DNA from: a virus
Reading direction: 5' to 3' (one strand)
Length of the DNA: 64,000 nucleotides
Virus record (IMG/VR): IMGVR_UViG_3300009151_000034
Span: 85,098-149,097 of that record
Part shown: positions 1,478-13,660 of the stretch, one piece after another
Layout: each line of letters begins with the position of its first letter
Numbering within the stretch: position 1 is the stretch's first letter
The notes under the pieces: generated by a model
Database searches by the model: none
What the model saw: only the letters and a program-made list of their open reading frames with translations
Told to the model about the DNA's origin: nothing
Position numbers and translations under genes: made by a program

Positions 1478-2585
1478 TTACATATAGTCCTCCAATGTAA
1501 GTTGTCTTTCTGCTTGCCAACCAATAACATCAAGAATTGAAGTAATTGGATCAAGGAAAGTCTTCTGGAACTGCATATCATAATCCACATACTTCTGCAA
1601 GTCAAATTCATCTGGTAGACTTTCAGGGACCGAAATAACCGTATCCTCAATGATATTAGGCATTCTGAGATAAGCAAACTTAATCTTATCATTTTCACCA
1701 ATCAACGGATATTTGTTGCTCAGTTCTTCGTTATTTTTAATAAGATTGTTATATAACAGAGCGCCCTTCACATGGATTGGAGTCCCTTTGATGTATACTT
1801 CTCCGTCTACTTTGGAGGCATACTTATCAAGTCCCTTCACCCCACGAGGAAAAGCAATATCCTCGAAAGGAAGATTTCTGAAATTATCTTTGAATTCAGC
1901 AATAAATGCTTGGGTAGTTTTTTCATCCTTATTCATAATAATTTCGAGTGCCTTCTTGATATTGACACGGGAAGCCTTTGGAGTTGAAGAACGAACCGAT
2001 TCGATACCAGAAACTTTTACTTGTGGTTCAGAAAACTGCACGCCTTCAATATTCCAGGCATTCAAAATATACATCTTCTTTCCTCGCCAAATACCTTTAC
2101 TGGCAATCGTTTCGCGTTTCATAAACATCTTTTGCTTATATGCATTCATGTAAGACGCAAGTTCTTCATATGACTTGTTAATCATAGGTTGAATTTTTTG
2201 TTCACAGAATTCATCAAGCATCTTGACAATTTGTAGTTCGTCAGTGATGCCAACCTTGTTCACTAGACCTTCCATATCAACATAGATCGAGTCCGTATCA
2301 GATGCAATAAGGTAATCGAAATTTTTGGTCTTGAGAATTCGGTTAAGATATTCATTCATTTTATTTCCGATCCAACGAACGGAAAGTTGTCCTGACATTG
2401 TAATGGCTTCAGCAAGATTGAAGTCAAACCAGCGGAACCAGACGTTACCAAGAGCACCATATGCTGAGTTAAAGTTGCACCTTTTTGGCTAGTTGCAAAT
2501 TATGATACTTTGAAACATCCCTTTCTACCTTTTTCTTGAGTTCAATCAATTCGCTGTCACTTAATTTGCTGTAATCGTCTAACAA
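1478..2585 (-). CDS. gp43B: DNA polymerase B, C-terminal subunit (gp43B), with a +1 frameshift at ~2471
   Basis: TTG start after GGAG. MLDDYSK..QLAKKVQL then +1 frame NSAYGALGN (motif B), SDTDS (motif C), KKMY, GIESVRSSTP, PCNA-clamp-binding-type C-terminus QLTLEDYM. Confidence 0.9.
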
Positions 2586-2647
2586 AACTTATTCTCCAAA
2601 TAACAAAGGTTTGATGTTTTCATCTATAAATAAAATTCCATATTTTT

Positions 2648-4126
2648 TTAGCTTTTAGAAATACCTCTTTTGTTTAGTTCATCATCAATCTTTTGAAGTT
2701 TTTTCTTGGCCTCTGTCATCTTCTCCTTATATTCTACACGGTCGTTATACATCTTTTCCATAAGAGCAGGCAAGAACCCTTGCTTATCCTTACGATACAT
2801 TGTGCCGTTGGCAGCATAAGCATATTCGTCTTGAAGATTACCAAGACTACCTTCTAGCAATTCATCAAGACTAGGCCAACCATCTTCGGCTTTCTCAATA
2901 AATGTTTCGGGTGAAATATTATATTGCATAATCAAATGTGGGTATAGGCTGTTCAAGTCAAACGAGACAACCCACTTGCTAAGGCCCAACCTGGGCTCCT
3001 TGACATAACCACCAATAAGTTCTTGGTCGAAAGTATTGATCTTCATTCTTGGAACAACAATGCATCGATCCATCAGGTAATTGTGAATGATAATATCCCA
3101 AGGTCGAACCGTAGTAAAAGTGTCAGCATAGTTTACCTTGGCGTCATATGCGAAGGCGATGACCTGTTCGATAAACTTTAACTTTTCTTCAAGTAGATCA
3201 ATGAGCGTAACGTCATGCACGTTGTAGTCAATGAACATTTCGAAGTTGCGCTGATACATATCATCAAGTGAAACATATCCTTCGGTTTTGTAATCAAGCT
3301 TTTTCTGACCTAAGACCTTCTCGGCAATATGATCTAGCTTATAGCTTTCTTCGTTACCAAAAGAAAACTTCTTATATAATGCATAATAATCAAGCACATT
3401 GATACCGGCAGGAACATACACAGTCATTTCCTTGCCGTGGATTTCAATTTTACGCTCGTTCAAAAATCCCCAAGGCGAAAGAAGATTTGCTTCTTTGTTA
3501 CCAAGTATACGTTTGATACGATTTACTATATACGGAATATCAAAAAATTCTATGTTCCAACCAGTGATAATATCAGGAAGAAATCGACCTGACTGCCATA
3601 CACGGAGAAATTTGGTTAATAAATCATGTTCGTCTTTGCAATGAAGATATGTTACTTTATCTGACTTAGACTTGTATGGTTTAAGACCCAATACTACCTT
3701 TTCACCACGACGACTAACCGTGATTGCCGTGATTTCTTTATCTGCCGTTTCGATATTAGGAAACCCACCAGAGGAATCTGTTTCGATATCGATGCTGATA
3801 ATATTGATCTTACCAACATCATAATGAATATCACCATGAAAATTATCATAGATATAAAGATACGCAAAGTTTTCAAGACCATAGATAGGCTTGCCTGAAA
3901 CATTATCAAAAATCTTAAGATGATCTTTGGCTTCTTTAATAGTATTGAATGGCATCTTGATCAGCGGAGTTCCATCCAAAAGACGAAATTCTGTCTGAGC
4001 ATTCTTTGGTGCTAATTCGAAAAGATAGGGAGAATATGGGATTTTTTCAGCTACACGTTCGCCATTCTTATAACCACGAACATAAACCTTGTCACCTCTA
4101 GCAAAAACATTAGTATAAAAATCCAC
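2648..4126 (-). CDS. gp43A: DNA polymerase B, N-terminal subunit (gp43A: exonuclease and motif A)
   Basis: DIET exo I, GWNIEFFD exo II, YNVHD exo III, SFDLNSLYP motif A. Ends in the fingers region. Confidence 0.93.
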   Translation of the reverse strand: MDFYTNVFARGDKVYVRGYKNGERVAEKIPYSPYLFELAPKNAQTEFRLLDGTPLIKMPFNTIKEAKDHLKIFDNVSGKPIYGLENFAYLYIYDNFHGDIHYDVGKINIISIDIETDSSGGFPNIETADKEITAITVSRRGEKVVLGLKPYKSKSDKVTYLHCKDEHDLLTKFLRVWQSGRFLPDIITGWNIEFFDIPYIVNRIKRILGNKEANLLSPWGFLNERKIEIHGKEMTVYVPAGINVLDYYALYKKFSFGNEESYKLDHIAEKVLGQKKLDYKTEGYVSLDDMYQRNFEMFIDYNVHDVTLIDLLEEKLKFIEQVIAFAYDAKVNYADTFTTVRPWDIIIHNYLMDRCIVVPRMKINTFDQELIGGYVKEPRLGLSKWVVSFDLNSLYPHLIMQYNISPETFIEKAEDGWPSLDELLEGSLGNLQDEYAYAANGTMYRKDKQGFLPALMEKMYNDRVEYKEKMTEAKKKLQKIDDELNKRGISKS

Positions 4127-5015: not shown

Positions 5016-5513
5016 TTACTCCTGAAGGAATTTTTTGTTTTTACCAGCCTTAGAATCTTCACTAGCATCATTGATATTAATTTTCTTTGGCTTCTTTGAT
5101 TCGGGGATGATGTGTTCTAGCCAGACCTTAAGCATACCGTTAAGTAATTCGGCATTCTGAATTTCTACATTGTCGGCTAGGGTGAATTTGCGGGTAAAAG
5201 CACGATCTGCAATGCCTTTATATACATAAGCCGTGCTGTCTTCTGCTGCTGTATTTACAGCTAGATTTCCTTTGATTAGTAAAGTATTTTCCTCAAGAGT
5301 AAGTTCAATGTCTTGCTTTGAAAAACCAGCAACTGCCATTTCGATAACATATTTGTTATCTTCAACTTTTTTGATATTATATGGGGGGAATGTGCCAGTC
5401 ATTGCGGTATTTGCAAGTTCGGCTAATCTTTTTGCCATATGATCGGCTCCTACGAAGTAACGATCAATATTGGACGTATTAATATTATAAATTTTCCAAA
5501 AGTCTGTTGTCAT
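5016..5513 (-). CDS. hsp20: Small heat-shock protein Hsp20 (IbpA-like)
   Basis: FPPYNI, MAVAGF, KGIADRAFTRKF, NGML motifs. Confidence 0.95.
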   Translation of the reverse strand: MTTDFWKIYNINTSNIDRYFVGADHMAKRLAELANTAMTGTFPPYNIKKVEDNKYVIEMAVAGFSKQDIELTLEENTLLIKGNLAVNTAAEDSTAYVYKGIADRAFTRKFTLADNVEIQNAELLNGMLKVWLEHIIPESKKPKKININDASEDSKAGKNKKFLQE

Positions 5514-5841: not shown

Positions 5842-6195
5842 ATGAATCGAATAGCGATATATTTATTTATTGGAATGTTTGTGTTCGGAACTATTGGCAC
5901 CGCATATTACCAATGGAAAAAAAACATTGAGCACGAAGCCTTGTTAGAATTTAATCAAAAGCAAATGGAAAAGAATATAAAAGACCAACAAGAGTTTTCC
6001 AAAAAGCAACAAGAAATTGCCCAGCAGCAACAAGAAGCTTCAGCAATGCTTATCCAACAAAATGCCCAGCTAACATCAAAAATTAAATCGATTGACGGGT
6101 ATTTAAGTTCTGATGCAGCCAAGAAAGGCGATAGACCAAGCTCAGATGTTATCAAAAAAACTATCGATATGATCCAACAAGGAAACGTAAAATGA
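5842..6195 (+). CDS. i-spanin (Rz-like)
   Basis: N-terminal TM helix plus Q-rich coiled coil, overlapping a lipoprotein gene. Confidence 0.75.
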   Translation: MNRIAIYLFIGMFVFGTIGTAYYQWKKNIEHEALLEFNQKQMEKNIKDQQEFSKKQQEIAQQQQEASAMLIQQNAQLTSKIKSIDGYLSSDAAKKGDRPSSDVIKKTIDMIQQGNVK

Positions 6196-6485
6196 AATAT
6201 TTGTTATTAACCGGATTGTGTGCTCTGGTTGCATGTTCTGACCCTACACCAGAAATCATAACAAGCACAAAACATCTTGTTGTCATGCCAGATTCATCAA
6301 TGTTTGAGTGTCCGTTGATTTCTACTTTTCCTAATACTAAAACTCTTACAGACATTCAGGTTGCTAGTCTAGTTAAAGAATTATATCGAAATAACAAACA
6401 ATGTTACACTAATATTAATGCTGTTAAAGAATTCTTAGAACATGCCAAGAAAACCGCTGATACTAAGGAAGAAATAACTAAGTAA
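6192..6485 (+). CDS. o-spanin lipoprotein (Rz1-like)
   Basis: Lipobox LVAC, Pro/Cys pattern (ECP..QC), ATGA overlap with the i-spanin. Confidence 0.75.
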   Translation: MKYLLLTGLCALVACSDPTPEIITSTKHLVVMPDSSMFECPLISTFPNTKTLTDIQVASLVKELYRNNKQCYTNINAVKEFLEHAKKTADTKEEITK

Positions 6486-6490
6486 TAATA

Positions 6491-6565
6491 GCACGGAACC
6501 CGTTTTCGCACTTTCCGGGGTTTGCTGATATTGAAGGAGAAGTGGTTGGCAGATATCAGACGTGC
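6491..6565 (-). ncRNA. Candidate three-way-junction small RNA downstream of tRNA-Cys
   Basis: Stems GCACG/CGTGC, CTGATAT/ATATCAG and AACCC(C)G/CGGGTT. CU-rich loop. No ORF. Confidence 0.5.
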
Positions 6566-6574
6566 TTTATAAAA

Positions 6575-6645
6575 AGTTCCGTGCCGGAATCGAACCAGCC
6601 TAGAAGGATTTGCAGTCCTTCACATAACCAATCTGCCAACGGAAC
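6575..6645 (-). tRNA. tRNA-Cys(GCA)
   Basis: Cloverleaf with AAGGA-CTGCAAA-TCCTT and TTCGATT. CCA not encoded. Confidence 0.93.
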
Positions 6646-6650
6646 ATATT

Positions 6651-6725
6651 TGGTAGGGACGGATGGATTTGAACCACCGGCATCAAGTGTCAGAGACTTG
6701 CGTTCTACCGCTGAACTACATCCCT
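6651..6725 (-). tRNA. tRNA-Gln(CTG)
   Basis: CAAGT-CTCTGAC-ACTTG, TTCAAAT, CCA end. Confidence 0.88.
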
Positions 6726-6738
6726 ATATTATAATATT

Positions 6739-6812
6739 TGGTAGCGATTGAAGGAATCGAACCCACATTAGCGGAGTCAAAGGCCGCCGTCCTACCGTTG
6801 AACGAAATCGCC
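6739..6812 (-). tRNA. tRNA-Gln(TTG)
   Basis: GCGG-CCTTTGACT-CCGC, TTCGATT, CCA end. Confidence 0.88.
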
Positions 6813-6822
6813 ATTAATTTTT

Positions 6823-7026
6823 TTATGCGTAAAAGTCTGTTTTAATACTAGGGGCAACAGAAACTACTAGCTGCCCATCATCATTAAAAACTTTAGCATG
6901 ACCATCATTTGTTTCTGCTTCTTTTAAGGCTTCTTCAAATGTTCCGAATCGTTTTTCTTCTACATCTAAGCCACCACCAAACCAACGGTGTGTGATAACT
7001 CTATATATTTTTTGAAATAAATTCAA
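6823..7026 (-). CDS. Hypothetical protein
   Basis: 67-aa ORF, TTG start after AGGA. Confidence 0.6.
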   Translation of the reverse strand: MNLFQKIYRVITHRWFGGGLDVEEKRFGTFEEALKEAETNDGHAKVFNDDGQLVVSVAPSIKTDFYA

Positions 7027-7027
7027 T

Positions 7028-8083
7028 TTACGATTCCTTACAATATTTAAGCCAAATCTTTCCGGTTTTGTTCGTGTATCGTGTTAAAGAAAATTGATTC
7101 GCCAAAACATTCAACTGAGGATATTTATAAGAATATTCAAGTTTCTTTACGATATCCTTAGTGCTAGTTGGAACAGCAGTTGTTCCCCAGGCTGCCCAAG
7201 GTAATTCGTTAGATGAAACAACAGGAACCCCTTGGCTAATCATATCTGCCGAAACGATATTAAAAGTTTCGCTAAAACTAACTTGCAGGCCCATATCCAT
7301 TTGACCACAACATTTAAGAAACTCTTCATGAGGCAACCACCCATAATCAAACATTCTATGTCCTCGATTGTATAGATGTTGGAATAATCCACGAAGATTA
7401 TGTAATATAGGTTCACCTTTCATTTCAATTCGGCCTGTATTGACATAAAAATGTAGTTTCTTATCAATATTTTCTGCGAATTGAATAGCTGCATGAGCCT
7501 GAATCAAATGATTTTTTAAAGGTCTTACTGCACCAAAACATCCAATGTCAATATATTCTTTATCTCGATTGAATGATTTACTTTTAAAATATTGTGGATA
7601 ATAATTCGGAAGATAAATTACCCGCTCAGAAGTTTTTGCATCTGTCCAGTAATTCTTTCGTTTCAAAAAAGAAGCAATTTCTTCATAGAACCTTGGAGAA
7701 TTACATGCAATAACAATATTTTTGAAACCAGAATAATCTCCAATCCAATCCATTGCCATACCTTCACCCGCCATAAAAGGCATTTCGCTATGGAGTCGAA
7801 TAATCCATGTGACTTTAGGATGAAGTTTTTCTAGGACTGCAAATTTTGAAGGAACTACCCACAAAGCTTCAATAATAACATGAGTGGGGTTAAATTTTGT
7901 GACTTCTCTATCGATATCGTTATTATCAACCACCACAACCAATTTACTTAATACGCCATTTTCTATAAGGTTTCTGTGGACGAATGACGCAGAATTATAA
8001 AGACCCGTGCTGAGACCAATATGAGAGTGGACAACAGCATTATAGTCTTCGCGGCGTTTTAAAATAAACAAGACTTTTTTCAT
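7028..8083 (-). CDS. Putative GT-B (GT4-like) glycosyltransferase
   Basis: FGAVRPLKNH, SFSETFNIVSADMISQGVPVV. Confidence 0.7.
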   Translation of the reverse strand: MKKVLFILKRREDYNAVVHSHIGLSTGLYNSASFVHRNLIENGVLSKLVVVVDNNDIDREVTKFNPTHVIIEALWVVPSKFAVLEKLHPKVTWIIRLHSEMPFMAGEGMAMDWIGDYSGFKNIVIACNSPRFYEEIASFLKRKNYWTDAKTSERVIYLPNYYPQYFKSKSFNRDKEYIDIGCFGAVRPLKNHLIQAHAAIQFAENIDKKLHFYVNTGRIEMKGEPILHNLRGLFQHLYNRGHRMFDYGWLPHEEFLKCCGQMDMGLQVSFSETFNIVSADMISQGVPVVSSNELPWAAWGTTAVPTSTKDIVKKLEYSYKYPQLNVLANQFSLTRYTNKTGKIWLKYCKES

Positions 8084-8200
8084 AATATACTCATGAGATG
8101 ATAGGATGTGAACAGAGGAACATTCTTATTTATCATCAAGTATATTGAATTAGTGTGACAACAGAATTAAATTTAATTATCTTTACAGACAAAGAATTTT

Positions 8201-8208
8201 TATAAATA
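8201..8208 (+). promoter_or_regulatory. T4-type late promoter of the transporter/holin operon
   Basis: TATAAATA 38 nt before the ATG at 8247. Confidence 0.7.
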
Positions 8209-8246
8209 TACCACTTATAGAAATATCACTAAAAGGTGCCAGCGAG

Positions 8247-9071
8247 ATGAAAAATATCTTAGTTGCTTTAGGTTTGGTTGTTGTTTTATTATTTAATTGT
8301 TCTGCTTTAGGTCAAGTAACCCCACCAGAAATAGCAGAAATTAAAAAATCAGGTCAGCTTGTGGTAGGTATGACTAGTTTCGATAATCTTCCGTTTTATG
8401 CAAAATACGGCGATGATGTTATTGGACTAGATGCTGATATTGCTCGAAAAGTTGCACAAATACTTAACGTTAAAGTTGTTTTTCGTAGAGATGCATCAAC
8501 GTTTCAAGATGTTGTTGAGCAAGTAAAACGCGGCGAATCAAATATAGCCATTTCAAAACTTAGCATAACTCCACCAAGATTGATAGCCGTAAGATTTTCA
8601 GACCCATATGTTAAACTTCACCAGGGGTTGTTGGTCAATCGATTATGGTTGAGCGGGGCTGAAAATGGAAGGTCGTTACCAAAAGTAATGAGAAATTTTG
8701 ATGGTGGGATTGCATTTATTCAAAACACTGCATATGACACATTTGCAAGAAGCAATTTTCCCAAAGCAACCTTTATGCCAAAAGAAAATTGGGAACAAGT
8801 TTTGGAGGCGGTTATCAATGGAAATGCAGCATTAGCTTATCGTGATGAATTCGAAATCAAAAGAATTTCGATTGAACGTCCAGAAAGTAATATAACAACA
8901 AAGGCCATTACATTAACCGATAGCACAGATTATATTGCAGCAGTTGTTGATTTTCGCCACACGCAATTACTAGAAATTGTTAATTTTGTGATCAAAAACG
9001 ATTTTAATGATATCGATGTGCGTAAATTGATTACGATGTATCAGGCCATGCAGAAAAAGTTAAGCAAATGA
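8247..9071 (+). CDS. Amino-acid substrate-binding protein (SBP family 3)
   Basis: Signal peptide. IKKSGQLVVG, GLDADIA, SITPPR..VRFSDPY. Confidence 0.88.
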   Translation: MKNILVALGLVVVLLFNCSALGQVTPPEIAEIKKSGQLVVGMTSFDNLPFYAKYGDDVIGLDADIARKVAQILNVKVVFRRDASTFQDVVEQVKRGESNIAISKLSITPPRLIAVRFSDPYVKLHQGLLVNRLWLSGAENGRSLPKVMRNFDGGIAFIQNTAYDTFARSNFPKATFMPKENWEQVLEAVINGNAALAYRDEFEIKRISIERPESNITTKAITLTDSTDYIAAVVDFRHTQLLEIVNFVIKNDFNDIDVRKLITMYQAMQKKLSK

Positions 9072-10330
9072 TCAAAAAAACACTGACAAGTCCATTCACC
9101 ATATTATTAAGTATTACCATAGGGGTATTGGCTGGTGTCTGGTATCCTGCCGAAAGCCAATTATTTGAAGGTGTTGGTGGTATATATCTTAGTCTGTTAA
9201 AAGTCGTTGTGCTACCATTCTTGTTAGCCACGATATTAGTTGGTATCGTAAGCCTTCTTCAACGAGAAGGTGCCAGCAACATGATCAAAAAAATAATGAT
9301 TGGGTTTATGCTTAGTATGGTCTTATCTGGTGCTATTGGTATTGCGGCAGTAAAATTAACATCAGGTGAAATGACTAACGAAAAGAAAATCATGCTGGGC
9401 AATTTAGTCAATAGCAAAGATAATGGCACCAATAGTTTTGAAATGACTTTACAGGTAACAAACACCCCCGAAGAAAAAACAAATCCATTCGAAATCTTTA
9501 ATAAATTCATTCCAGAAAATATCTTCCAGGCACTTAACCTAGGAGAAAGTCTAAAGGTTGTCGTATTTTGTCTTATCTTTGGTATAAGTCTTGGTAATAT
9601 CAAGAGTGCCGGTCAGCAAGCAATTCTTGATATTTTAAAAACAATTCAGCAGGCATCAATTTCAATTTTCAAATTTCTCAATTATTTGTTGCCATTCGCT
9701 CTACTTGCAATGATTTCAAGTCAAGTGGGCAAAGTAGGAATATCAATTTTTGAAATGATGTTCGAATTCATATACCAACAAGCACTAGGCGGATTGTTGA
9801 TAATTATTGTCGGAACATTAGTTATCTGGATGCGTAGTAAAGTTAGTATTTTAAAAGTAATATCAGAAGTCAAACAAACTTTAATTATTGCGGTTAGTTC
9901 AAGAAGTGCGCTTGCCTGTATCCCATATGCCCAGGATGCACTTACCAAATTAAAATTTGAAACAAATAATGTAGAATTATTGGTTCCTCTTGGCTTCACT
10001 GTCAATCGAATAGGCAGCATTTGTTATTATGCCATTGCCACGATTTTCATTGCGAACATATATGGAGTTGATCTCGGTGTATCGGGTTTGATTATAGTTT
10101 TATTTGGAAGTATGTTAGCGGGTCTTGCATCAGCGGGAACTACAGGTGTATTGACGGTAGCAACGGTGGCGATTGTTTGTGACCTATTAAAACTACCACA
10201 TGAAGCCGCTATCGTTCTTCTTATCGCAGTCGATCCGATAATGGATATGATTCGCACAGCCAGTCACGTATATGGAAACGTTGCAGTATCAAGTTTTGTT
10301 TGTTCAAAGGAATTAATTATCAAGGAGTAA
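9068..10330 (+). CDS. Dicarboxylate/amino acid:cation symporter (DAACS, GltP/DctA family)
   Basis: LLKVVVLP, PENIF, SSRSALACIP, LVPLGFTVNRIG, AVDPIMDMIRT..V.GN. Multiple TM helices. Confidence 0.92.
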   Translation: MIKKTLTSPFTILLSITIGVLAGVWYPAESQLFEGVGGIYLSLLKVVVLPFLLATILVGIVSLLQREGASNMIKKIMIGFMLSMVLSGAIGIAAVKLTSGEMTNEKKIMLGNLVNSKDNGTNSFEMTLQVTNTPEEKTNPFEIFNKFIPENIFQALNLGESLKVVVFCLIFGISLGNIKSAGQQAILDILKTIQQASISIFKFLNYLLPFALLAMISSQVGKVGISIFEMMFEFIYQQALGGLLIIIVGTLVIWMRSKVSILKVISEVKQTLIIAVSSRSALACIPYAQDALTKLKFETNNVELLVPLGFTVNRIGSICYYAIATIFIANIYGVDLGVSGLIIVLFGSMLAGLASAGTTGVLTVATVAIVCDLLKLPHEAAIVLLIAVDPIMDMIRTASHVYGNVAVSSFVCSKELIIKE

Positions 10331-10336
10331 TCAACT

Positions 10337-10933
10337 ATGGATTTTAAAGACACATTCTTCAAAACTTTAGAATGGGTCGGACATAATCCACTCCGTCTAG
10401 TTATATTATTAGTCATAGGTGTATTCGGAATGGGTGCATGGTTCGTCTACACTGAAAAAGATGCATTTATGGCTTCTTATAGAGCACAGCAAGCCTTACC
10501 ACGTATGAATGGCAAATATGAAGAAGCTGTAGGATTTGTTTTAAAAGAAGGCAATGCCGACATGGTTGCCATATTTGAAGTAAATCCGCTTCTTAATACA
10601 AGAAAATTGGTGTATCTTGTAATGAAAGATACAGGCAGAGTCAAATCTTACGATGGCACTGAGGTAGGTCTATTCACAAAAGACTTAGATAATAATAGAG
10701 ATGTTATTGCTTTGATGAGTGGCCAAATGCCATGTAGTGATTATAAAAAACCACAAAGTTATATGGGTTTTGTTTATGTCAGAGCAGGAATAACTCATAT
10801 GTGCAGAGTCAGCGTTCCACCCGATCCTAGCAAATTCATTGGACAGATATCTGTGGGTTGGAAAGTCAAACCAGAAGACGACGACGCTATGCGGACTGTA
10901 ATACGAGTTGGTTCATCAATGCTTTGGCAATAA
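10337..10933 (+). CDS. Putative T4 gp t-like holin
   Basis: Single N-terminal TM helix, periplasmic domain with 2 Cys and a GQISVGW C-terminal strand like T4 holin T. Late operon. Confidence 0.55.
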   Translation: MDFKDTFFKTLEWVGHNPLRLVILLVIGVFGMGAWFVYTEKDAFMASYRAQQALPRMNGKYEEAVGFVLKEGNADMVAIFEVNPLLNTRKLVYLVMKDTGRVKSYDGTEVGLFTKDLDNNRDVIALMSGQMPCSDYKKPQSYMGFVYVRAGITHMCRVSVPPDPSKFIGQISVGWKVKPEDDDAMRTVIRVGSSMLWQ

Positions 10934-10943
10934 AGGATACACA

Positions 10944-11252
10944 ATGTTTTTTAATATTTTATTAGCTTCAAATTTGCTCTTACATAACGTAGATTATCAA
11001 AGAGCGCAAGTTCCTGCCGTCTGTGATATTGATACGGAAGTGTTTTCTAACATGAAGAGGGATGGATTTTCTCCATGGATTTACACAAAGATGGAGAAAG
11101 ATCATAACGAGTTGGTTATTATCGTGTGGAGAACACCAAATAACAATGAAATTTCTGTTACAAGAACATTAAAAGGCGAAGGTAAAACTTGCATTGTGGG
11201 ATGGGGTGACAAAGATACTACTATTTTTGAACCCACACCAAAATCATATTAA
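10944..11252 (+). CDS. Hypothetical exported protein with two Cys
   Basis: Start MFFNILL after AAGGA, hydrophobic N-terminus. Confidence 0.6.
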
Positions 11253-11383
11253 CGAGGCGGCATACTTTTTTTAAGACCGGCTGCAATAATTTCATGAATC
11301 GTCCTATTGCAGCCGACACATTTCTTAGTCTGTTCGTCTATTCTACATATTTTTATACACGGCGATTCTGATGTATTTGACAA
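11249..11383 (-). CDS. DUF1289-like Cys-rich small protein (not in ORF track)
   Basis: Manual translation [32 protein letters not shown].. TTG start with AAGGA. Confidence 0.75.
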
Positions 11384-11400
11384 TGTAATATCCTTTAATA

Positions 11401-11593
11401 GTTTTTATGGCAGGTGAGGTATCCATCTGGTGGTTCCTAACAAGGACTAAGTGCCAGATTGCCCATTCTCCTTTTACCGAATGATCATTTCGGTTCTACC
11501 TATATCGCTTGCAAGTCGAGTTTGGTAGACTTTCCTTACCACAAAACTTTATTGACGACTTACAGTTTATCACTTGCGCCGATATAAGTCAAT
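11401..11593 (-). ncRNA. Candidate multibranched ncRNA
   Basis: Intergenic. Closing stem GTTTTGTGGTA/TGCCATAAAAAC, internal stems TCTACC/GGTAGA, ACCGA/TCGGT, ATCTGG/CCAGAT. TAAATA just upstream. Confidence 0.55.
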
Positions 11594-11597
11594 CTAT

Positions 11598-11885
11598 TTA
11601 TCGTAATAGTTGTGCAATTTCTTCTTTGATGTTTTGTAAATCACGGAGCATATGGTTTGTGACAATACGTGAGTTGACGATTTCAGTTACCATACCTAGC
11701 AATTCATTAATAGCTTTTTCTTTTTCCTCCTGAAGCGTAACAGCACGTTCTTGCAATAAATCAGCAACCGCATTAGCAAGGTTTAGACGAATATCAATTC
11801 CATCAATTGATTTTCCTCCATTATGATACGAATATTGCCACTTAATTGCAGCCTGAATAACGTTTTCTTCAATTTCAGTGTTCAT
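11598..11885 (-). CDS. Hypothetical protein
   Basis: 95-aa ORF with GAGGA SD. Confidence 0.65.
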   Translation of the reverse strand: MNTEIEENVIQAAIKWQYSYHNGGKSIDGIDIRLNLANAVADLLQERAVTLQEEKEKAINELLGMVTEIVNSRIVTNHMLRDLQNIKEEIAQLLR

Positions 11886-11916
11886 AATATAAATCCTCTT
11901 TTTAGGCAGAAAATTA

Positions 11917-12012
11917 TTAAACGTTTGTTACACGGCCAAAAACATAAAATCTTGCGCCATTATACAAACCAATGAGCCAAGTGTTTGTGAGAATATCATA
12001 ACGACTTACCAT
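11917..12012 (-). CDS. Small hypothetical protein (31 aa, not in ORF track)
   Basis: MVSRYDILTNTWLIG.. with AAGGAG SD. Confidence 0.5.
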   Translation of the reverse strand: MVSRYDILTNTWLIGLYNGARFYVFGRVTNV

Positions 12013-12014
12013 CT

Positions 12015-12194
12015 TCAAACTCCTTCAATAATAGGTTTGGAAATCACAAATTCAGTGTTAGAAACATAACGAGAATATTCCACTGCCTTATTTAAGGTAG
12101 GAAACTTCTTTGATTTAACAACAGCATATCCATAATCTTTTGAACCGATATCTTTGTTGCAAATTTCATAGGTAACTTTGTATGTGTTCTTCAT
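12015..12194 (-). CDS. Hypothetical protein
   Basis: AGGAG SD. TTGACT..TATAAT promoter at ~12231-12257. Confidence 0.6.
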   Translation of the reverse strand: MKNTYKVTYEICNKDIGSKDYGYAVVKSKKFPTLNKAVEYSRYVSNTEFVISKPIIEGV

Positions 12195-12285
12195 CTCATT
12201 TTTCTCCTGACTCTCTTTCAATACAAGCATTATATACTATATATGTGTTGAGTCAAGAGAAAAATGACTTAGCGGAGAAGTTTTT

Positions 12286-12996
12286 TTAAGCTAGAGCCCC
12301 AGCAACTTTACCGACAGCGGAACCGAAACGATTTGCGCCAGTCCTAATTGCACCAGTAACACGATTTTTAATATTCGTAATACCAGTATCAATCTTATTA
12401 GCTAATTTGTTAGTTCCATAAACGTTTGATCTGTGAATGCTTTTAGCCAAATCTCTGTTCGCAGCAGTTTTACTTGCTGTAATTGAAGCATCACGGTGTC
12501 TTTGTTGTAATCCAGTAACTTTTGCCTTATGGAATCCGGCTTTAATCGCGCCAGAAATACCAGAAGAATTCGTAGCAGAAGTTTTCATTGCTTTTACTGC
12601 TCCCTGATATTTTTGATTTGTTGCGGCACGAGTCTTAAGAGCTTTTGCAGCAGTATTTTGTTGGCTTTTGGCACGGAATTTGGATACCATGTTACGAATA
12701 CCATGAGCAGCACCAGCAACAAAACCACCAATCGATTCATCCATCATGGCTTCGATTATTTCCATGAATAAGTCTTCGTTGATATCATAACCTGTTACGC
12801 TTTCCATAACAGCATCATTAAGTGTTGGTTGCTTATAATTTTGAATGAAGTGTTCCATCATGATCGAAGCAACATATGCGTCTTCTTCGGTCATCTCATA
12901 ATCTTCGGAAAAATCATAGAGTTCTTCTGCAATAGTTTCCAAAAAATTAATGAACACGTCTTCTCTTAGTGTAATTTGTTGTTCTGTCAAGTCCAT
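12286..12996 (-). CDS. Late protein with acidic N-half and basic C-half (possible processed head protein)
   Basis: GGAGG SD, TATAAATA upstream at 13034-13041, charge-segregated sequence. Confidence 0.65.
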   Translation of the reverse strand: MDLTEQQITLREDVFINFLETIAEELYDFSEDYEMTEEDAYVASIMMEHFIQNYKQPTLNDAVMESVTGYDINEDLFMEIIEAMMDESIGGFVAGAAHGIRNMVSKFRAKSQQNTAAKALKTRAATNQKYQGAVKAMKTSATNSSGISGAIKAGFHKAKVTGLQQRHRDASITASKTAANRDLAKSIHRSNVYGTNKLANKIDTGITNIKNRVTGAIRTGANRFGSAVGKVAGALA

Positions 12997-13052
12997 AGCT
13001 AAACCTCCATTGAAAAACGAGTTATTATAGCTATATTTATAAATAACAGAAT

Positions 13053-13129
13053 TGGTAGCCACAGTTGGATTTGAACCAACACTTTGCAGATTTTGAGTCT
13101 GCTACCTCTGCCAATTGGGTTATGTGGCC
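13053..13129 (-). tRNA. tRNA-Leu(CAA), short variable loop
   Basis: GCAGA-CTCAAAA-TCTGC, TTCAAAT, CCA. Confidence 0.9.
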
Positions 13130-13130
13130 G

Positions 13131-13499
13131 TTACTTCAATCCTCGGTGTAATACGGCAGATTTATAACTGATTGCTTCAAAAAAGTCAAGCAGTGTTTTC
13201 ATTGTAAGGGTTGGATCAGCATTACCACACATAAACACATCAACGGCAGCGAAACCTTTTTCTGGCCATGTATGAACTGACATATGTGATTCTGCAAGAA
13301 CAACAACACCAGTATAACCCATTCCTTCACCAAAATGATGCCAGTTTGCAGTTATGACAGTGGCACCAGCTTCTTTGGCTGCGGATTCAAAAATAATTCC
13401 TGCTTTATCCATATCGAAAAACGAGGTATTATTTATTTCACCCCAGATATCAATCATAAGATGGAATCCTAGTGATGGGTTATCTTCGATGTTTTGCAT
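13131..13499 (-). CDS. speD: S-adenosylmethionine decarboxylase proenzyme
   Basis: GYTGVVVLAESHMSVHTWPE..AAVDVFMCG. Confidence 0.93.
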   Translation of the reverse strand: MQNIEDNPSLGFHLMIDIWGEINNTSFFDMDKAGIIFESAAKEAGATVITANWHHFGEGMGYTGVVVLAESHMSVHTWPEKGFAAVDVFMCGNADPTLTMKTLLDFFEAISYKSAVLHRGLK

Positions 13500-13660
13500 T
13501 ATTCATAACCTTTAAAAAATTTCATGTTGCCACATTTTTCACATCGAAGAATAAATTTTTTACCTATAACTACATCATCGTCGTTTAAAACTGTGCGTTC
13601 TTCATGGACAATCCATTTATGAAAACATCCATGTAGTAAAAAATCAATAATTCTTTTCAT
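13499..13660 (-). CDS. Small Zn-ribbon-like hypothetical protein
   Basis: GCFHKW..CEKCG. Confidence 0.6.
   Translation of the reverse strand: MKRIIDFLLHGCFHKWIVHEERTVLNDDDVVIGKKFILRCEKCGNMKFFKGYE

Follow-up and report, generated by a model that had tools for sequence, protein, structure and literature searches.

Why would a bacteriophage carry, side by side in one operon, a secreted solute-binding protein (SBP) for amino acids and a membrane carrier of the DAACS family, whose members normally work alone, without an SBP? We consider this question for a unit at positions 8201–11252 of a 64,000-nt stretch of viral DNA (hereafter, the window), which comprises bases 85098–149097 of the 149,097-bp IMG/VR record IMGVR_UViG_3300009151_000034, a genome with direct terminal repeats. 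The unit encodes a family-3 SBP, a full-length DAACS carrier, a membrane protein whose predicted fold resembles that of the T4 holin T, and a small orphan open reading frame (ORF). As detailed below, comparison of these genes with their relatives indicates that the first two probably constitute an SBP-dependent importer of acidic amino acids that is host-derived, and we consider it reasonably probable that the unit as a whole is a late accessory operon combining such an importer with a relative of the T-type holins.

The central observation is that the SBP and carrier genes stay together. The stop codon of the former and the start codon of the latter overlap as ATGA, confirming the translational coupling that an initial annotation of this DNA had reported, and in phage and cellular loci alike the gap between the two genes lies between −20 and +6 nt. 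A search of IMG/VR with the third gene of the operon (encoding P0003) recovered 45 related phage loci; 31 of them carry the SBP gene, the carrier gene and the third gene in that order, a further 8 show the carrier gene before the contig ends, and 6 have the third gene only. The pair is tightly coupled in about 39 related phage contigs, and the flanks of these loci differ (an RNA ligase gene in one, speD in others), indicating that the cassette moves as a block. Bacterial chromosomes hold the pair as well: close SBP homologues are rare there, being present in 4 of the 301 Burkholderiales genomes searched, with the carrier gene adjoining in 4 of 4, and in 19 of 401 sampled alphaproteobacterial genomes, where the carrier adjoins 13 of 28 SBP loci, including 9 of the 11 loci at a profile E of 1e-44 or better. 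Co-occurrence, which the initial annotation had suggested checking, is thus seen on both the phage and the bacterial side. The Burkholderiales and Rhodobacterales pairs lie among CO-dehydrogenase-type, channel, amidase and GH94 genes, which marks these cellular copies as chromosomal, and no polar-amino-acid ATP-binding cassette (ABC) genes are adjacent in the cellular loci L007 and L008.

The comparison also speaks to the age of the association. In a quick maximum-likelihood tree, the phage carriers and one copy from a Burkholderiales metagenome-assembled genome form a clade with 100% support; the Burkholderiales copy is weakly placed inside the phage clade, and the Rhodobacterales copies are its sister group. 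This topology is consistent with one ancient transfer between a phage and a bacterium, in either direction, and long retention in phages thereafter. Pairwise ratios of nonsynonymous to synonymous substitution rates (dN/dS) are 0.07–0.13 for the SBP, 0.04–0.09 for the carrier, and 0.05–0.16 for P0003. The comparative evidence accordingly supports treating SBP and carrier as one conserved unit in phages and bacteria, one that appears long established in the phage lineage with all three genes under purifying selection (dN/dS 0.04–0.16); the initial description of the pair as well integrated into the phage is upheld by this conservation.

Several variants of the arrangement were observed in passing. 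The small-genome alphaproteobacterium G367 (L025/L040/L044) has three tandem SBP paralogues before one carrier gene. A second, extremely divergent SDF paralogue often follows the cellular pair, giving SBP–SDF–SDF operons (L007, 12686–16274; L008, 7962–11612), and might serve as a heteromeric partner. One 524,565-bp IMG/VR “viral” contig (L080; IMGVR_UViG_3300027749_002876) carries an SBP, carrier, holin-like and racemase cassette, its relatives being 145–190 kb in size; its length could reflect concatenation or misassembly, or it could come from a much larger phage. A 703-aa ORF in L016 was rejected as a fusion protein, as it proved to be an out-of-frame upstream extension of the carrier ORF.

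The carrier matches Pfam SDF (PF00375) at 218 bits (cut-off 27.9) over profile positions 4–384 of 387, in keeping with its original description as a full-length GltP/DctA-family symporter, and its best solved relatives are aspartate/glutamate transporters (9bgz, GltPh, GltTk and EAATs), with profile matches in the Protein Data Bank (PDB) to E 6e-50. The GltPh family works by an elevator mechanism. When aligned to the solved aspartate transporters, the phage carrier retains the Ser-rich HP1 and, in transmembrane segment (TM) 8, the motif D-x-x-x-D-x-x-R-T; its D393 and R396-T397, which carriers throughout the phage clade share, align with the D..R-T of the aspartate transporter 9bgz. In aspartate transporters, the TM8 Asp and Arg bind the amino group and the side-chain carboxylate of acidic amino acids. 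The TM7 motif NMDGT, in contrast, reads N-R-I-G-S in the phage carrier, and an Asn and an Asp of TM8 read His and Asn (TM8 being D..D..R-T..H..G-N). Nor is this a peculiarity of one protein: none of 53 aligned SBP-paired carriers, from phages or from cells, has the TM7 Asp or the final TM8 Asp, and in place of NMDG they read x-R-x-G, the Arg before the Gly being present almost always. We take the lost TM7 and TM8 residues to correspond to the Na1 and Na3 site residues established for GltPh; with these altered, ion coupling has probably changed in the SBP-paired carriers. Judged by profile, these carriers are members of SDF and form a divergent DAACS subfamily.

Metagenomes hold hundreds of proteins that are 65–97% identical to the phage carrier, several of them on contigs of 145–192 kb. 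In the GenBank phage collection, carrier matches do not exceed 33% identity, or 26% among those that span most of the protein, and lie mostly in records with the size and annotation of bacterial contigs; in the same collection, SBP matches are weak and partial only, and the window has no DNA match.

The assignment of the first gene product to the family-3 amino-acid SBPs likewise stands, with a match to Pfam SBP_bac_3 (PF00497) at 56 bits (cut-off 26.4). The protein has an N-terminal signal peptide with a cleavage-type site, A-x-(A/G) followed by Q, and its Cys18 is not conserved, so that it is not a lipoprotein. The Arg of its S-x-x-S-I-T-x-x-R motif and the Asp of its Y-R-D-E occupy, in alignment, the positions of the ligand-binding Arg/Asp pair in solved amino-acid SBPs such as 4h5f and 4i62; in family-3 SBPs of known structure, this pair binds the alpha-carboxylate and alpha-amino groups. 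Taken together with the D/R pair of the carrier, these residues make an acidic alpha-amino acid such as Asp or Glu the most likely substrate. A further hint comes from sister loci: an Asp/Glu racemase gene follows the third gene in 24 of 37 related transporter-bearing phage loci, with none in this genome or in its near relatives. The initial annotation had seen no ABC permease or ATPase nearby, and this holds on a larger scale, since BPD_transp_1 (ABC permease) has no match in the whole 149-kb genome, and the sole ABC_tran match there falls below the cut-off, within an SbcC-like nuclease gene.

Structure prediction offers a separate view of whether the two proteins meet. The carrier and the mature SBP were predicted as a complex with a score of 0.53, whereas the best of three controls scored 0.00; at least 95% of contacts are shared between runs, and the partner predicted local distance difference test (pLDDT) score is at least 83. 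On calibration, 58 of 80 solved complexes passed the mark for a complex, as did 2 of 110 mismatched pairs, with scores at or below 0.60 accounting for 7 of those 80 solved complexes and for both passing mismatches. Modelling of the complex, to which the initial annotation had looked, gives a score in a class that lends a carrier–SBP complex weak support.

The features of the operon are collected in the table below. As first described, it runs opposite to its surroundings: the plus-strand ORFs lie between phage genes on the minus strand, and GC skew is positive only over 8–11 kb of the window. Its phage-like base composition was also borne out (GC 0.35–0.38, the same as the rest of the phage), and the late-type motif at which the operon had been said to begin, TATAAATA, is present. 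The window has 14 copies of this motif where 6.3 would be expected, a count attained in 0 of 100 shuffles, and six other copies stand 11–50 nt upstream of the capsid, scaffold, sheath and other minus-strand genes; a related TAAATA precedes the SBP gene in loci L003, L005 and L006. By analogy with T4, it is reasonable to regard TATAAATA as a T4-type late promoter, which would place expression of the operon late in infection. A hairpin lies directly past the last ORF (−19.7 kcal/mol, z −2.1, with no U-run after the stem). An Rfam search over 6000–13500 returned tRNAs only.

Features of the operon, in window coordinates
Feature	Position	Strand	Remarks
TATAAATA, T4-late-promoter-like motif	8201..8208	+	38 nt upstream of SBP ATG
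Secreted family-3 solute-binding protein (SBP), 274 aa, P0001	8247..9071	+	Pfam SBP_bac_3
Full-length DAACS/SDF-family carrier, 420 aa, P0002	9068..10330	+	Pfam SDF; ATGA overlap with SBP stop
198-aa protein with single TM and GAF-like domain, P0003	10337..10933	+	Predicted fold; distant structural relative of T4 holin T
102-aa orphan ORF, P0004, from its ATG (longer reading from 10908)	10944..11252	+	AAGGA ribosome-binding site; status uncertain
11-bp inverted repeat hairpin, possible operon end	11278..11315	+	Weak evidence

The third gene product, P0003, had been called a T-like holin at the outset. Its AlphaFold2 model (pLDDT 96; predicted template modelling score 0.81) has an N-terminal helix, one TM (about residues 18–39), and a C-terminal alpha/beta GAF-like domain; the family to which it belongs has 113 representatives at 50% clustering, mostly 190–240 aa in length, with C133 invariant and C156 nearly so. 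In VIA-align comparisons, the periplasmic domain of the T4 holin T takes ranks 1–3 (Z 13.4, 13.2 and 12.9; root-mean-square deviation 3.0–3.3), with residues 57–198 of the model matched to 78–216 of T and 131–132 residues aligned (for rank 1, 132 of 141 at a deviation of 3.1). Foldseek also returned the T4 holin T periplasmic domain among its top matches, and the structural neighbours in BFVD are phage proteins of about 200 aa, among whose annotations are holin, class III holin and T holin. In sequence searches, P0003 has no Pfam or NCBIfam match, and none of 49 diverse family members matches Phage_holin_T (PF11031) at E up to 0.1; PF11031 is also unmatched in this genome and in Cronobacter phage S13, an absence that carries little weight because control genomes were unmatched as well. 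P0003 thus resembles T4 holin T in fold and architecture (rank 1, Z 13.4) and not in sequence (0 of 49), and we think it rather probable that P0003 is a distant relative of the T-type holins and not a member of that family at the sequence level. Its homologues occur elsewhere in other settings: in the 34-kb spring-water phage MW202825, the gene lies two genes before a lysozyme gene, and in Cronobacter phage S13 (L045; KC954775.1) the homologue S13_076 stands alone, on the opposite strand, near head genes. Phage S13 is a cultured member of the Straboviridae. A 215-aa ORF that follows the carrier gene in L007 is unrelated to P0003 and has no Pfam match.

How far should the combined interpretation of this operon, as an SBP-dependent importer joined to a holin relative, be trusted? 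Several points weigh against it. Dependence of the carrier on the SBP is argued from gene linkage and from a complex score classed as weak; the lower-scoring alphaproteobacterial SBP homologues have no adjacent carrier, so that the tie to carriers does not extend to the whole SBP family; and a search for longer forms found no SBP–carrier fusion in the carrier subfamily, which is weak evidence in itself. The late-promoter interpretation of TATAAATA is by analogy only. For P0003, ordinary GAF domains come within one Z unit of the T4 holin T match, a tie that makes the fold alone not diagnostic of a holin; an hhalign comparison of the P0003 family with T4 T falls short of significance (probability 0.4%); and no endolysin gene adjoins P0003, with lysozyme-type PF00959 and PF01464 not found in the genome. 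A first alternative draws on the transport-related points, namely that SBP and carrier work independently, the carrier as a stand-alone DAACS symporter and the SBP as a feeder of a host ABC importer or as a periplasmic sink. Family-3 SBPs do normally serve ABC importers (judging by NCBIfam names and solved relatives), and some distant homologues of the phage SBP are encoded without an adjacent carrier, which together with the weak complex score speaks for this alternative; we nevertheless consider it improbable, given that close SBP homologues in phages and cells are followed at the same −20 to +6 nt by a carrier of one and the same subfamily, that this subfamily is without the canonical ion-site residues and so fits a changed mechanism, and that ABC parts are absent both from the phage and from the surroundings of the cellular copies. 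Another explanation would be that the contig is a chimera produced by assembly or that contaminating bacterial sequence has entered it, as the bacterial-type genes of the operon and the mislabelled bacterial contigs behind the “phage” database matches of the carrier might suggest. This we regard as having next to no probability: the GC content of the operon equals that of the phage, a contig of identical sequence from an independent study crosses the left junction (7759–8813), and contigs from independent runs bridge both junctions without differences, which shows that the contig is not chimeric. In addition, many contigs place the cassette between phage genes, and the genome has terminal repeats. 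The integrity of the contig, on which the initial annotation had depended, is accordingly secure, with the three genes found in phage context in dozens of contigs.

The role of P0003 raises two further alternatives, both of which would tie it to the transporter. It could serve the uptake system as an accessory subunit or a sensor, with its periplasmic GAF-like domain binding the ligand or the SBP, and some facts would suit this: in 24 related loci, P0003 lies between carrier and racemase, inside the uptake operon; GAF domains, which commonly bind small molecules, score as well as holin T; and the P0003 family has no Phage_holin_T match. Yet cellular SBP–carrier loci have no P0003-like gene, homologues of P0003 are found where there is no transporter (6 related loci, Cronobacter phage S13 and, near a lysozyme gene, MW202825), and both the length and the architecture of the protein are those of T4 T, with viral structural neighbours that include annotated T or class III holins, leaving a subunit role unlikely in our estimation. 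The second possibility is that uptake and lysis are functionally coupled, with ligand-loaded SBP or carrier flux modulating the T-like holin, such that extracellular Asp/Glu or D-amino acids set the timing of lysis. The T4 holin T is indeed controlled through its periplasmic domain by the periplasmic protein RI (as the titles of PDB entries 6PSK and 6PX4 state), the three genes stay together even where their genomic neighbourhoods differ, and sister phages have the holin-like gene lodged between those for the carrier and the racemase. Carried further, SBP and carrier would be sensor and importer at once, with ligand-bound SBP or carrier activity acting on the GAF-like domain as RI acts on T, a notion that we consider very unlikely; it is equally far-fetched, in our judgement, that acidic or D-amino acids released, for example, by lysing neighbours would then set the lysis time, on top of an undescribed SBP-dependent DAACS class without canonical Na+ sites. 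Coupling of any such kind seems to us a distant prospect. The holin-like gene is found without the transporter in 6 of the 45 related loci and in other phages; at least three phage lineages have it in this form, and its presence apart from the transporter means that co-transcription may reflect a shared late operon and nothing else. Moreover, between close phages (L075 vs L082, L064 vs L084) the holin-like protein is 68–73% identical while the adjacent carrier is 90–97% identical, a pattern suggesting that the holin-like gene evolves faster or has recombined; the difference between 73% and 97% for L075 vs L082 argues against tight co-adaptation. A shared late promoter is the simpler explanation, and we leave a functional link between uptake and lysis outside the explanation that we favour.

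The surroundings of the operon are T4-like: the phage is an uncultured freshwater T4-like myovirus, and the window encodes the T4-type major capsid, scaffold, portal and sheath proteins, large terminase and UvsX, as well as a gp46-like (SbcC-like) nuclease, a helicase, and a split DNA polymerase. Its major capsid protein is 62–66% identical to those of Stenotrophomonas phage DLP_6, Sinorhizobium phage phiM12 and Pelagibacter phage Mosig, and freshwater and lake metagenomes from several studies hold DNA near-identical to the phage. The two parts of the T4-type DNA polymerase are ORFs of 492 and 306 aa (window 1478–4126), and host-type accessory genes lie nearby, speD (S-adenosylmethionine decarboxylase) at 13131–13499 and a gene for an Hsp20 small heat-shock protein at 5016–5513. 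In one independent metagenome contig, 301 other letters replace about 500 nt of non-coding sequence (11271–11772), showing that the region after the operon varies between strains. The last ORF of the operon, P0004, has a weakly hydrophobic N-terminus and a good ribosome-binding site; no counterpart is present in the related phage loci, it has no match in the phage database, Pfam or NCBIfam, and it shows no similarity to the small ORF that follows the P0003 homologue in L072. Its single-sequence model (pLDDT 53) is unusable, and its atlas scores (0.86 at most) are leads only. The ORF may be spurious, or P0004 may be a secreted partner protein of small size.

Putting these elements together, we propose an uptake module of bacterial origin, in which a periplasmic family-3 SBP would capture an alpha-amino acid, likely Asp or Glu, and hand it to a divergent DAACS elevator carrier without the usual Na+-site carboxylates. 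The pair would have entered the phage lineage in a single acquisition and been maintained there under purifying selection, presumably because it raises the amino-acid supply to the infected cell, and the pair would share its late operon with a class III (T4 holin T-like) membrane protein, most likely for lysis. We found no description in the literature of an SBP_bac_3–DAACS pairing or of the phage cassette; if the proposal is correct, the pair represents a class of SBP-dependent secondary transporters that published work has not described. It would probably be a case of SBP-dependent secondary transport, a known kind, with new families on both sides and borne by a phage. According to PMC12344293 (2025), TRAP and TTT were the only transporters known to work with a soluble SBP before TAXI-GltS was proposed; that paper predicts further classes among elevator transporters and asks whether the elevator mechanism is what permits SBP use. 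A family-3 SBP working with a DAACS carrier that has rewritten ion sites would be a new transporter class and, GltPh-type carriers being the textbook elevators, would bear directly on that question.

Comparison with known systems shows where the pair and its neighbour depart from precedent. P0003 shares with the T4 holin T (class III; PF11031; PDB 6PSK, 6PX4, 6PXE) a length of about 200 aa, a short N-terminal cytoplasmic segment, a single TM, and a periplasmic alpha/beta GAF-like domain with conserved cysteines that is its best structural match, and it is encoded in a late-type operon of a T4-like phage that has no PF11031 match. It differs in an N-terminal segment shorter by about 20 residues, in sequence similarity that is not significant, in its location inside an uptake operon and not at the T4 t position, and in that no RI-like partner or adjacent endolysin was identified; P0003 would extend the T4 holin T family, at the level of fold, to distant T4-like phages without identified holins. 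The carrier resembles the DAACS/SLC1 carriers (GltPh, GltTk, 9bgz, E. coli GltP and DctA, and the EAATs) in its full-length SDF match, its HP1 and its TM8 D-x-x-x-D-x-x-R-T, and is set apart from them by the N-R-I-G-S in place of NMDGT, by the His/Asn at the TM8 Na1 site, and by belonging to a subfamily that is paired with SBPs. With TAXI-GltS (Bordetella pertussis BP0403 and GltS; PMC12344293), TRAP and TTT, the phage system has in common a periplasmic SBP gene coupled to the gene of an elevator-type carrier, with no ABC parts; with TAXI-GltS in particular, it shares an acidic amino acid as the likely substrate and a proposal derived, in both cases, mainly from gene coupling and modelling. 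Unlike those systems, its SBP belongs to family 3 (the ABC-type polar amino-acid fold) and not to TAXI, DctP or TctC, its carrier is of the DAACS/SLC1 type (GltPh fold) and not GltS, DctM or TctA, it has no small Q-like subunit, no fused form was found, and it is phage-borne; the pair would thus resemble TRAP, TTT and TAXI-GltS at most in how it works, and by family (SBP_bac_3 and SDF) it is a member of none of them.

Among phages, a comparable case is the pstS of cyanophages, a phage-borne host-type periplasmic binding protein for nutrient supply during infection. The freshwater T4-like lineage described here carries a binding protein and its carrier together, often with a racemase, and under purifying selection. 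In bringing the membrane carrier too, this phage would need no host transporter, and the pair, if our interpretation is right, represents a self-sufficient viral module for nutrient import that goes beyond a helper for a transporter of the host.

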